From Thermoplasmata archaeon (lineage in GTDB: Archaea > Thermoplasmatota > Thermoplasmata > GCA-020350865), in the NCBI GenBank assembly GCA_020348445.1, contig CP070751.1, forward strand, positions 3,169,315-3,184,240: 14,926 nucleotides of DNA. Reading direction: 5' to 3'. Shown here one piece after another: positions 5,257 to 11,187 of this stretch. Made by a program: the position numbers and the translations under genes. Each line of letters opens with the position of its first letter. The stretch's first letter is position 1. A model generated the notes under the pieces. The model searched no databases. It was not told the origin of the DNA and was given only the letters and a program-made list of their open reading frames with translations.

Positions 5257-5290
5257 CTTTTGCGGAACGTTCCACAAAAGGTATATATAC
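5257..5290 (+). promoter_or_regulatory. Archaeal BRE/TATA promoter with overlapping 24-bp palindrome
   Basis: CAAAAG (5275-5280) followed by GTATATATAC (5281-5290). CTTTTGCGGAAC|GTTCCACAAAAG (5257-5280) pairs at 11 of 12 positions. An equivalent promoter sits at 10281-10297. Confidence 0.65.
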
Positions 5291-5390
5291 ACCAACTAAC
5301 AACTATTATGCAAAGGAAGGTACTTTAAGAAATATTACCACTTGAGAAGTTGTCACGCCATTAATAAACACGGAGAGGGTGGAGGTGATA

Positions 5391-5516
5391 ATGAAGCATC
5401 AGAGGAGGGATAACAATATGATAATCCAGTTGAAACTTTCAAGAACCAACCCTTTGATATTTTTGAGCTGTGAGATGTTAGCGCGCCGAGGTGGGGCGCG
5501 GTATAAATACCAATAA
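5391..5516 (+). CDS. Possible 41-aa upstream ORF (MKHQRRDNNMIIQLKLSRTNPLIFLSCEMLARRGGARYKYQ)
   Basis: GGAGGTGA at 5381-5388 directly before ATG 5391; a second in-frame ATG at 5418 follows GGAGG. Protein-level conservation with the paralogous region is poor. Confidence 0.25.
   Translation: MKHQRRDNNMIIQLKLSRTNPLIFLSCEMLARRGGARYKYQ
5402..5513 (+). repeat. Conserved leader element, copy 1 (copy 2 at ~10381-10494)
   Basis: Identical blocks TCCAGTTGAAACTTTC (5425-5440/10404-10419), GCGCCGAGGTGGGGCGCG (5483-5500/10461-10478) and TATAAATACCAA (5502-5513/10483-10494). Confidence 0.9.
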
Positions 5517-5550
5517 ACTCCTTATATCAAGGGGAGGAAGGTGATTAAGA

Positions 5551-6066
5551 ATGAGAAGATTCATAGCAATATTAGGAACACTATTAATAGCAGCGGTATT
5601 TATCATAAGCGGGTCAGCCGTCGCAGGATATGTAAATGAGTATATACCTGAAGGTTCTTCAGCTGTTACGAATCCAGATGAAGCAGAGGGGCCTGAAGAC
5701 TATACTTATGCCACCGTGGGAATAAATAGTCCTCCCACGCTCGGAGTACTGCTTCTCGATCTAGGTGATGAAGAGAATTGGATGGATGCTGAACAAGATT
5801 TCACGGTTTATGGCTGGGAGTATGGTCCAGGCACTAACATTTTCGAAGAATATACCGTTGTAATATATAACGATGGCCTAACTGCTCGTTACGGACCATA
5901 TTACGGAGATGATGATGAGGATAAAGTCTTTCAAACACCTAGCACCCCCACAAACCCAGATTGGCGCTATATTGAGATCAATGGTACATCAGGGGAAGTC
6001 GATTTTGAGAACCATGATGATACAATCTACGGCCCGGAAATAGATGCAGTGGGTTGGAGAGCCTAA
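5551..6066 (+). CDS. Small secreted acidic protein (YGPEIDAVGW C-terminus), probably a beta-sandwich/jelly-roll; function unknown
   Basis: 171 aa with SD GGAAGGTGA (5536-5544) and a Sec-type signal MRRFIAILGTLLIAAVFIISGSAVA. Clear paralog at 10517..11017. Confidence 0.9.
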   Translation: MRRFIAILGTLLIAAVFIISGSAVAGYVNEYIPEGSSAVTNPDEAEGPEDYTYATVGINSPPTLGVLLLDLGDEENWMDAEQDFTVYGWEYGPGTNIFEEYTVVIYNDGLTARYGPYYGDDDEDKVFQTPSTPTNPDWRYIEINGTSGEVDFENHDDTIYGPEIDAVGWRA

Positions 6067-6100: not shown

Positions 6101-6150
6101 CCTGGGAGCAAAACCGACTCTCAGGTATCTCCCTATTTTTCTATTCTTTT
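6101..6150 (+). terminator. Putative terminator: hairpin plus T-rich tract
   Basis: CCTGGGAG (6101-6108) / CTCTCAGG (6118-6125) form an 8-bp stem with one G-U pair, followed by TATTTTTCTATTCTTTT. Confidence 0.5.
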
Positions 6151-6176
6151 GGGTTAAAAGGCGAAAAGTGTATAAG
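6146..6176 (+). promoter_or_regulatory. Putative BRE/TATA promoter of the beta-helix/CARDB gene
   Basis: CGAAAA (6162-6167) then GTGTATAAG (6168-6176), conserved with 11114-11128 upstream of the paralogous gene, about 50 nt before the SD-preceded start. Confidence 0.55.
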
Positions 6177-6225
6177 ATAGTAAAACAATTGATAAATACG
6201 GTGGTCTAGGTAAAGGAGGGTTGTT

Positions 6226-9208: not shown

Positions 9209-9691
9209 TCAACGAACTGTTTTTTTTATATTTTTTAGAGATACAATATCAAGTGTACCATCCTTTTTTAAGTTTGTATAGATATCCATCTCTATAATTC
9301 CCTGGTAAATTTTCTTTTTCTCTAAATAAGGCGTTATATTCTTTAATTTCATTGTTTTCAATGTATCATTTGATAGCTTCAATGTAATCGATAAGTTTGA
9401 TAATCCTTTTTCTAATTCTCGTGCATATTTTTTTCCATCATCTGTGAGAAAATAATATTTAATTTTTCTTTTACCACATTTTGTGTGTCCAACACCTTCT
9501 TGAATATAACCCTCTTCTATCAATTTATTAAGTGGTCTGTGTATATATCCACGTTTTATATTAACATTCTGGGCAATACCAATCTGTGTTAATTCGAAAG
9601 GTAAATCAAATAGACTTATAGAACTATGATAGTTCAACAGATGGAGGAGAATCCTCATATCTGCTGAAATAAGGCTGTTGTGCCGTTGCAT
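9209..9691 (-). CDS. Winged helix-turn-helix (MarR-like) DNA-binding protein, putative transcription regulator
   Basis: RILLHLL...ELTQIGIAQNVNIKRGYIHRPLNKLIEEGYI...KRKIKYYFLTDDGKKYA is a typical wHTH with wing and LTxxG motif. ATG 9691 follows GAGG; the track start TTG 9718 is the alternative. Confidence 0.85.
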   Translation of the reverse strand: MQRHNSLISADMRILLHLLNYHSSISLFDLPFELTQIGIAQNVNIKRGYIHRPLNKLIEEGYIQEGVGHTKCGKRKIKYYFLTDDGKKYARELEKGLSNLSITLKLSNDTLKTMKLKNITPYLEKKKIYQGIIEMDIYTNLKKDGTLDIVSLKNIKKTVR

Positions 9692-9880
9692 TTTTGTCAA
9701 TCCTCGCAAATATCGCAACAGTCTGACTATTTCTATAGGGATGGTTAGAGATAAAAAATATTACCGAAATTCCATGGTCAGATCGAAACTGATCTTTATA
9801 TATTACCTCAGCAGGTATCTCATTATAATCGCTCGCAATATTTTATACCTCACCCTTAGATTTTTTAGTATTTTAAGTTG

Positions 9881-10217: not shown

Positions 10218-10270
10218 CTATATATACCTTTCTATCAACTGGCTACTTTTCTAATATATAAAACCTTTTA
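10218..10270 (-). promoter_or_regulatory. Two leftward BRE/TATA-like elements
   Basis: The - strand reads TAAAAGGTTTTATATATT (10270-10253) and TAGAAAGGTATATATAG (10234-10218). The latter shares 13 nt (AAAGGTATATATA) with the promoter at 5277-5289. Confidence 0.4.
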
Positions 10271-10297
10271 GTTCATGAACCAAAAAGGTATTTATAG
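10266..10297 (+). promoter_or_regulatory. Archaeal BRE/TATA promoter with overlapping palindrome
   Basis: CAAAAAG (10281-10287) then GTATTTATAG (10288-10297). TTTT-A-GTTCA|TGAAC-C-AAAA (10266-10285) has one mismatched pair. Confidence 0.65.
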
Positions 10298-10380
10298 AGG
10301 GGGTGAGCACTATATTATCGCTACAAGCTCTTTGAGCAGATGACGTTGCTGTAGTAAGGGGAGGTGACAAAAAGGCGGGA

Positions 10381-10494
10381 GAGGAAGGACAATAATACGA
10401 TATTCCAGTTGAAACTTTCTAGAACCAGCCCTTTGACATTTTTGGGCTCTGATATGGCAGGCGCCGAGGTGGGGCGCGACGATATAAATACCAA
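10381..10494 (+). repeat. Conserved leader element, copy 2
   Basis: Aligns to 5402-5513 with the same three identical blocks. Confidence 0.9.
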
Positions 10495-10516
10495 CAAGAA
10501 AAGGAGGTGAGAAAGA

Positions 10517-11017
10517 ATGAAAAGAATTATTACAATATTGGGAACATTACTAACCGTAATAGTTCTGATGAGTGGATCAGCAGTCGCCCAACCAACATGG
10601 CATTATGCAGTTGATGTAGCAGATTCCGAAGACTGTACGAACCCAGATTGGGCACTCGGTGCGCCAAATCCTTATGATGCTGCCCTTGGGACGAACGGTC
10701 TCGATCCCAAACTCGGATGGATGTTACTCGATCTGGGTAGCGGCAATGAGATGGGGGCCAGCCAAGACTTCACGGTGTATGCCAGCTCTTCTGTGCTTGA
10801 GTATTATCGGTTATATATATGGACTGGTGAGGCTAAAGATCCCCTGTACCCAGAGGATGGTTGGCTCAGGGATGATACACAGGACTATGGTTTTACTACG
10901 CCATCGACCCCAGGAATGGAATGGCGCTATTTCCATTTTGTTGGGATATCAGGGATATGTGATCCAGGGGATCCATACTACGGAGCGGATATAGATGCAG
11001 TCGGCTGGTACGGGTAG
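10517..11017 (+). CDS. Small secreted acidic protein (YGADIDAVGW C-terminus), paralog of 5551..6066
   Basis: 166 aa with SD AGGAGGTGA (10502-10510) and signal MKRIITILGTLLTVIVLMSGSAVA. Shares NPD.A.G, LG..LLDLG, A.QDFTVY, TPSTP, WRY and IDAVGW motifs with its paralog. Confidence 0.9.
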   Translation: MKRIITILGTLLTVIVLMSGSAVAQPTWHYAVDVADSEDCTNPDWALGAPNPYDAALGTNGLDPKLGWMLLDLGSGNEMGASQDFTVYASSSVLEYYRLYIWTGEAKDPLYPEDGWLRDDTQDYGFTTPSTPGMEWRYFHFVGISGICDPGDPYYGADIDAVGWYG

Positions 11018-11083
11018 AAGAGATTGACATTGTTCTGAACAAAGCTCGTAGTTACTAAGATAAGAAAAGCTCCTAAACATCTC

Positions 11084-11102
11084 TTTATTTTTTCCTTTTT
11101 TT
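11084..11102 (+). terminator. Putative oligo-T archaeal terminator
   Basis: TTTATTTTTTCCTTTTTTT lies about 70 nt after the stop, in the same position as the T-tract at 6136-6150. Confidence 0.5.
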
Positions 11103-11128
11103 GGGGTAAAAAACGAAAGGTGTATAAG
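11096..11128 (+). promoter_or_regulatory. Putative BRE/TATA promoter of gene 11188..13113
   Basis: CGAAAG (11114-11119), G, then TGTATAAG (11121-11128); homologous to 6162-6176. Confidence 0.55.
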
Positions 11129-11187
11129 GAATAAAAGCAATATAAGTAATAATAGCGGTTTAAATTACACGAAATAGAGGAGAGGTT

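Follow-up and report, generated by a model that had tools for sequence, protein, structure and literature searches.

To our knowledge, few cis-regulatory RNAs are known in archaea, and we are aware of almost nothing on the co-ordinated expression of exported proteins in these organisms. The described systems that come closest to the leader analyzed here are the H-type pseudoknot riboswitches (preQ1-I, RF00522; SAM-II; guanidine-III; and fluoride), in which about 35-45 nt of the 5' leader just 5' of the start codon form a single GC stem, the loop of which pairs with a strand further 3'. A functional analogy may also be drawn with the exonuclease-resistant pseudoknots (xrRNA) of flaviviruses. 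For a Shine-Dalgarno (SD) look-alike placed far upstream in a leader, the precedent is the STAB-SD of Bacillus thuringiensis cryIIIA (Agaisse and Lereclus 1996, as cited in PMC7509114), and a related 5' stabiliser is that of hbs mRNA (PMC5737220).

We analyzed a window of 14,926 nt (the whole stretch of DNA; positions below are counted from its first letter unless they are given for the genome) from a Thermoplasmata archaeon of the Methanomassiliicoccales, whose genome consists of one contig of 5.16 Mb with 41.5% GC. This genome is unusually large for its order, the relatives in our sample having 1.2-3.7 Mb. A sequence-only reading of the window had pointed to a conserved leader element, duplicated upstream of two small-protein genes. 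Both copies (hereafter copies A and B) are indeed at the places described, but a whole-genome search with window positions 5372-5520 as the query identified ten full-length copies rather than two, with 75-86% identity and E values of 1e-14 to 1e-41. All ten lie directly 5' of one paralog each of a family of small proteins with signal peptides. The element is also longer than had been proposed: copies A and B can be aligned from about 5372 and 10345 to 5515 and 10497, respectively, well above the level of their flanks, which places the 5' edge further out, at about 5372 and 10350. The main features of the two units are as follows.

5257-5290, plus strand: promoter region of copy A, with a 24-nt near-perfect palindrome at 5257-5280
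about 5281-5290, plus strand: TATA box of copy A, next to an A-rich BRE-like stretch abutting the palindrome, both as read from the sequence
5381-5478, plus strand: 5' module of copy A, including the SD look-alike 1
5481-5516, plus strand: 3' module of copy A
5551-6066, plus strand: small secreted protein of copy A, 171 aa, with a signal peptide and a beta-sandwich predicted by an Atlas model
10264-10296, plus strand: promoter region of copy B, with a 25-nt palindrome at 10264-10288 and a TATA box at 10289-10296
10360-10458, plus strand: 5' module of copy B, including the SD look-alike 1
10460-10497, plus strand: 3' module of copy B
10517-11017, plus strand: small secreted protein of copy B, 166 aa, 43% identical to the copy A protein

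Of 40 relatives searched, only two, both congeneric genomes, proved to contain the full element. A scan of JGI metagenomes with the stem-1/loop pattern gave no matches, and a protein-guided scan of JGI metagenomes yielded 18 loci. The regions upstream of these loci contain the whole element in eight cases and its 3' part alone in seven, the latter preceded by different sequence, which at four of them (L036, L038, L039, and L051) is a nearer promoter-like box. Besides these, three more small-protein paralogs in this genome (genome positions 4774076(+), 3863312(-), and 2240941(-)), together with L041, have the same pseudoknot behind a different conserved 5' module of about 130 nt, and one gene family therefore uses at least two leader modules. 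The leader is modular, in that a family-specific 5' module is joined to a generic 3' pseudoknot module.

In each copy, an A-rich BRE-like stretch and a TATA box lie about 200-240 nt 5' of the ATG and have the same form as other promoters in the window, which supports the proposal of the sequence-only reading that the leader runs from an upstream BRE/TATA-like promoter to the small-protein ATG. The predicted start sites are near 5310-5315 for copy A and near 10320 for copy B. Palindromes are found at the same position in other copies, where they are flanked by T4 and A4-5 and abut the TATA box; their core differs between paralogs with the symmetry kept (GGAACGTTCC, GTTCATGAAC, and GGTTAGCTAACC), and they could be operators with diverged specificity or could form hairpins. 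The proteins of the family have 135-171 aa, share only 37-60% identity with each other, and had no match to a Pfam family. Downstream of the genes are T-runs (6131-6153 in copy A and 11073-11098 in copy B) followed by a separate promoter for a gene encoding a NosD-like beta-helix protein, and thus the small genes look monocistronic.

Several other features of the neighborhood were observed. The regions 6131-6210 and 11073-11135, each before a large surface-protein gene, contain a conserved BRE/TATA composed of CGAAAAG or CGAAAGG plus TGTATAAG. The window holds five large, internally repetitive genes for NosD/beta-helix (and CARDB) surface proteins, and a gene for a winged-helix/PadR-like regulator (9209-9718, minus strand) is located between the two units. 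Genes for HTH regulators also end just 5' of the small-protein genes in L036 and L051 (a relative and a metagenome contig). A simple k-mer scan detected no CRISPR array in the 5.16-Mb genome, and mimicry of a CRISPR repeat end (UUGAAAC) was dropped as an explanation.

The 3' end of the leader is an H-type RNA pseudoknot in which both helices covary. It measures about 32-45 nt and consists of a GC hairpin with a 4-6-bp stem (S1) and a GAGGUGG loop, whose UGG pairs with the CCA of the AAAUACCAAUAA box to form a second helix (S2). The two copies in the window are built as follows.

5482-5487 with 5495-5500, plus strand: helix S1 of copy A, closing the loop 5488-5494
U5492, G5493, and G5494 with A5512, C5511, and C5510, plus strand: helix S2 of copy A
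5501-5509: A-rich loop 3 of copy A, containing TATAAATA
10461-10465 with 10473-10477, plus strand: helix S1 of copy B, closing the loop 10466-10472
U10470, G10471, and G10472 with A10493, C10492, and C10491, plus strand: helix S2 of copy B
10478-10490, plus strand: loop 3 of copy B

Both copies contain the features listed by the sequence-only reading (GC stem, GAGGTGG loop, and TATAAATACCAA stretch), and the covariation in additional copies that it had proposed as a check is seen in S1 as well as in S2. Across 27 leaders, 90% of the S1 positions pair and three of the five base pairs show changes in both partners, with a score that none of 500 shuffles attains; in 67 aligned instances S1 is 96% paired. 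Its pairs are variously GC, CG, UA, or AU, with many G-U pairs. The complementary strand would have mismatches in place of the G-U pairs; the structure is therefore RNA and is made from the plus strand. Thus, the hairpin noted earlier is a real RNA structure, as its compensatory changes and G-U pairs demonstrate, yet it is part of an H-type pseudoknot and not a simple hairpin.

The evidence for S2 comes from outside the model used to collect the instances. The covariance model, R1, was built with the hairpin alone, and the loop-to-box helix was left out of it; S2 is nevertheless 94% paired in the 67 aligned instances. The fifth base of the loop (U or C) changes together with the base that follows CC in the downstream box (A or G). 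The first pair of S2 is UA in 42, CG in seven, and UG in three instances, where the CG covariation may stem from as few as about three independent events, and the second pair shows one AU exchange. Cells changed on both sides number 23, compared with 3.7 in shuffles, and none of 500 shuffles reaches 23. When the partner strand was slid by 1-3 columns as a control, only 27-60% of the positions were paired. Hardly any variation is seen in GAGG, the unpaired first four bases of the loop, and loop 3 is rich in A; A9 is found in all 66 distinct rows of the alignment, and G8, G10, and G11 each in at least 60 of the 66. Because the loop pairs with the CCA of the box, it is not a free SD, and the SD-like role that had been assigned to it gives way to one in which it is mostly engaged in the pseudoknot.

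S2 has a length of only 3 bp, and a number of leaders deviate from the pattern. At the covarying pair of S2, a C-A mismatch is seen in three leaders. At least three rows combine a loop A with a box C in a non-standard way (columns 12 and 38 of alignment A6; for example, L075, L077, and L111), and three further rows with a loop A are gapped at the box column, the C sitting in the gapped column in L074 and L096. Loops that read GAGGAGG or GAAGAAG go with a C in place of the A after the box CC, a correlated but non-Watson-Crick change. S1 is degraded in copies c5, c9, and c10. Insertions were observed too. Some leaders have an extra hairpin of 30-75 nt inside loop 3, between the GC stem and the AAAUACC box (genome positions 1107768(+), 1690364(-), 1110688(-), 1115940(-), and 469926(-)). 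In a metagenomic homolog (L044:181-386), about 95 nt are inserted within the hairpin and flanked by a 9-nt direct duplication of the 5' half of the hairpin, which resembles a target-site duplication.

The pseudoknot is by no means special to this gene pair; it is widespread in leaders of Thermoplasmatota. R1 matches about 25-30 sites in this genome, among which copy A ranks first (61.7 bits) and copy B fifth (48.1 bits), and both copies have the GC stem, the GAGGUGG loop, the AAAUACC box, and the place just 5' of a strong SD. For the class, 151 genomes were sampled and 19 of them, this genome counted, had sites, covering 10 of 66 genera; a phylum-wide sample added three further genomes. The pseudoknot is patchily spread through Thermoplasmatota. 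A signal-like hydrophobic N-terminal segment is present in 57 of 65 downstream proteins and is lacking from the other eight. At loci from further families of this class (L088, L089, L090, and L095), the pseudoknot precedes a conserved cytosolic protein of about 154 aa that starts with MPL(V/L)NKRT and has no signal peptide; the motif is therefore not strictly tied to exported proteins.

Between the pseudoknot and the start codon, the leaders fall into two spacer classes, the SD starting either 8-11 or 17-24 nt 3' of the pseudoknot. The corresponding features in the window are given below.

5518-5523 with 5531-5536, plus strand: hairpin 3 of copy A, whose 3' arm enters the G-run of the extended SD
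5537-5544, plus strand: SD of copy A, GAAGGUGA, followed by the ATG at 5551-5553
10503-10510, plus strand: SD of copy B, GGAGGUGA, followed by the ATG at 10517-10519

In long-spacer leaders the spacer forms a small hairpin (hairpin 3): all 29 distinct ones fold better than their shuffles, with a mean z of -3.06, and the stem sequences differ widely among them. As in copy A, the 3' arm of this hairpin extends into the G-run of the SD. Copy B has no hairpin 3 and a spacer of only 9 nt. The 3' end of the 16S rRNA is GGAUCACCUCCU, with which the true SD pairs over 8-9 nt and which the SD look-alikes match as well. Mini-ORFs were noticed in some other pseudoknot leaders, in which an AUG follows the GC stem after 1-3 nt (genome positions 634087(-), 468036(-), 2073984(+), and 4623482(-)); some of them end in the UGA of the main SD, and none occurs in the ten small-protein copies.

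The 5' module differs from the 3' module in that, within this genome, it is present only at the ten small-protein genes. Its parts are the following.

5372-5388, plus strand: G-rich tract of copy A with the SD look-alike 1, GGAGGUGA, at 5381-5388
5389-5478: family-specific module of copy A, a purine-rich tract followed by the pyrimidine tracts UUCC, CUUUC, and CCCUUU
5446-5452 with 5465-5470, plus strand: possible hairpin of copy A
10360-10367, plus strand: SD look-alike 1 of copy B, GGAGGUGA
10425-10431 with 10444-10449, plus strand: possible hairpin of copy B

The sequence-only reading had considered that this part, about 100 nt, might be structured. It is conserved in sequence, but no fold is supported. 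The CAGCCC/GGGCUG stem (stem 1) showed no covariation (81.6% paired, compared with 79.4% in shuffles), and no excess folding energy was detected for the module (z of +0.99 in copy A and +0.50 in copy B). The pairing of the SD look-alike 1 with the CCCUUU tract showed no covariation either, and the predicted accessibility of the real SD in 16 leaders, compared between native and shuffled modules, gave no consistent sign of masking by the 5' module. For the full leaders, RNAalifold predicted no more than a weak pairing (-1.26 kcal/mol) between the SD and a distant pyrimidine tract; with 11 close copies as input it gave stem 1, GGAA/UUCC, and a CUUUCU:SD pairing, weak proposals that depend on the sequences included. 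A helix found by hand, AGAGGGC:GCCCUUU, has two apparent compensations (c1 and L037) but is out of register across promoter types, and it was rejected.

The SD look-alike 1 is complementary to the 16S 3' end, and no usable or conserved start codon lies behind it. It is kept in most copies, weakened in c5, c6, c10, L031, and L048, and absent in L050; among its variants in homologs are GGAGGCGA and GAAGGUGA. This variation weakens a strict STAB-SD reading. The 5' module might act as a platform for binding in single-stranded form, as a ribosome dock resembling STAB-SD, or as a site in the DNA.

We consider it rather probable that the element is a transcribed, cis-acting 5' untranslated leader of about 200-240 nt, carried by monocistronic mRNAs for small secreted proteins and involved in post-transcriptional control. 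We infer that its function is probably the control of translation or of mRNA stability. Transcription would begin at the predicted start sites, and the leader would then present, in this order, a family-specific 5' module that opens with a perfect SD look-alike, the pseudoknot, a hairpin in some copies, and an unusually long SD with the start codon. The pseudoknot, with the hairpin where present, would fold compactly and so make up a block bordering the ribosome-binding site on its 5' side. Such a block may tune the loading of the 30S subunit, or may block 5'-to-3' decay and so stabilise the downstream message, or do both, while the upstream SD look-alike might serve as a stabiliser at which ribosomes dock in the manner of STAB-SD. 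Being common to many genes for exported proteins, the motif would keep the output of these genes in step, and a factor or ligand recognizing the invariant loop bases may mediate this.

A stronger version, in which the pseudoknot is a receptor that either senses a small signal as a riboswitch or binds a dedicated protein or a ribosomal or SRP component, seems unlikely to us on present evidence. If it were true, a Thermoplasmatota cell would use it to co-ordinate the translation, stability, or membrane targeting of all its mRNAs for exported proteins, the pseudoknot would be an RNA tag of a 'secretome regulon' with no described archaeal counterpart, and the family-specific 5' modules would add a second layer of control.

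Regulation at the level of DNA is rather improbable as an account of the element. It would treat the 5' module (5381-5478) as an operator or enhancer-like site, read by a factor such as the winged-helix/PadR-like regulator encoded between the units, or would place a second promoter in the leader with TTTGATATTTTT or TATAAATA as the TATA box. The 5' module could act as DNA, given that it shows no covariation, no excess folding, and no consistent effect on SD accessibility while its sequence is conserved; the HTH regulator genes that adjoin several loci (9209-9718, L036, and L051) and the palindromes in the promoters also fit such a reading. However, the G-U pairs and the pseudoknot covariation mark the 3' module clearly as RNA, and operators located at least 100 nt 3' of the start site would be unusual in archaea. 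The idea of a second promoter at TATAAATA, raised by the sequence-only reading, fares poorly in particular. The TATA-like letters of TATAAATA (5502-5509) vary in homologs, in which AUACCAAUAA or ACCAAUAA is kept, and the box is preceded by the GC stem without the GAAAA-type BRE of the real promoters here. A start about 25 nt past either box would cut into S1 or into hairpin 3, two elements whose structure is under selection, and this makes an internal promoter at TTTGATATTTTT or TATAAATA unlikely. TATAAATA is loop 3 of the pseudoknot and not a promoter.

We give little credence to a separate small or processed RNA that functions in trans and lies upstream of the genes only incidentally. The processing of long archaeal leaders is known, and the 5' module has both a conserved sequence and its own upstream promoter. 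Nonetheless, no T-run terminator was found between the module and the ATG, and the element invariably accompanies this one gene family, with a constant distance to the SD. A whole-genome search for a complementary partner returned only matches of 14-19 nt, which are at the level of chance, and such a trans-acting partner was discarded.

The preferred reading as an untranslated leader is also consistent with the way in which the element is conserved. Across ten aligned gene units, positions 5391-5480 are the best-conserved segment, with a mean pairwise identity of 0.77-0.85, compared with 0.63-0.64 in the upstream promoter block and 0.3-0.6 in the coding sequence; the leader diverges 2-3 times less than the coding sequence and the promoter-distal flanking DNA. 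In the shared frame, the mean pairwise difference among the ten copies is 0.14, 0.23, and 0.18 at the first, second, and third codon positions, so that the second position is the most variable, whereas the real coding sequence shows the normal pattern (0.41, 0.35, and 0.53). This contrast indicates that conservation acts on nucleotides. We found neither a conserved start codon nor a conserved frame nor codon-level conservation in the leader. The earlier conclusion from two copies, that conservation is not at the protein level, therefore extends to all ten.

These data leave very little room for a short upstream peptide whose translation would control the main gene, be it a frame of 45-48 codons from the GTG at 5379 and 10364 or an ORF started by the SD-like loop. 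The long frame is open in eight of the ten copies and in L031 and L035, and elsewhere in this genome there are genes with an AUG placed after the hairpin at a spacing like that of an SD. Its start codon, however, is not conserved (copies with a type II promoter have two stops just 5' of the GTG), 1-nt indels interrupt copies c6, c8, and c10, and in the metagenomic homolog L047 the open frame is shifted with respect to the conserved bases; the ten copies all lack an AUG 3' of the hairpin. It is likewise hard to believe that the element has no function and is a remnant of recent gene duplication or of gene conversion among paralogs, as paralogous units in one genome with repetitive adjoining genes might suggest: the leaders are 75-86% identical while their proteins are 37-60% identical, the leader diverges less than its surroundings, the identical pattern across species and in metagenomes already contradicts this explanation, and, in further families of this class and phylum, unrelated genes have the pseudoknot module in front of them.

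A cmscan search of the whole window on both strands against Rfam 15 (E up to 1) gave no matches, which agrees with the sequence-only reading, in which no known riboswitch had been recognized. We also found no relevant description of an archaeal motif of this kind in the literature, and the pseudoknot motif is apparently undescribed. A small, covarying motif that marks dozens of genes for signal-peptide proteins in a genome offers a testable handle on post-transcriptional control in uncultured relatives of methanogens. It is worth noting that the same pseudoknot is placed behind at least two different, strongly conserved 5' modules, which is unusual and suggests layered regulation.

Compared with the H-type pseudoknot riboswitches, the motif is similar in its size and in its place in the 5' leader, in the single GC stem whose loop pairs with a downstream strand (here with the support of covariation), and in the A-rich third loop and the nearly invariant unpaired bases. 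It differs from them in that the pseudoknot leaves out the SD, which begins 8-24 nt past the 3' strand of S2, and in that the regulon comprises diverse signal-peptide proteins plus a few cytosolic ones, with no metabolic pathway. Thus, two features that define these riboswitches are missing. The flavivirus xrRNA resembles the motif only by functional analogy, as a compact pseudoknot 5' of a sequence that it might protect; there is no similarity in sequence or topology and no ring-like three-way junction. Unlike the STAB-SD, the leader belongs to an archaeon and not to a Firmicute, its look-alike is not invariant among homologs, and the look-alike is accompanied by a pseudoknot. What it shares with the STAB-SD is an SD look-alike with 8-9 nt complementary to the 3' end of the 16S rRNA, located a long way 5' in the leader and not followed by a start codon, and an association with genes for secreted proteins, whose products may be abundant.
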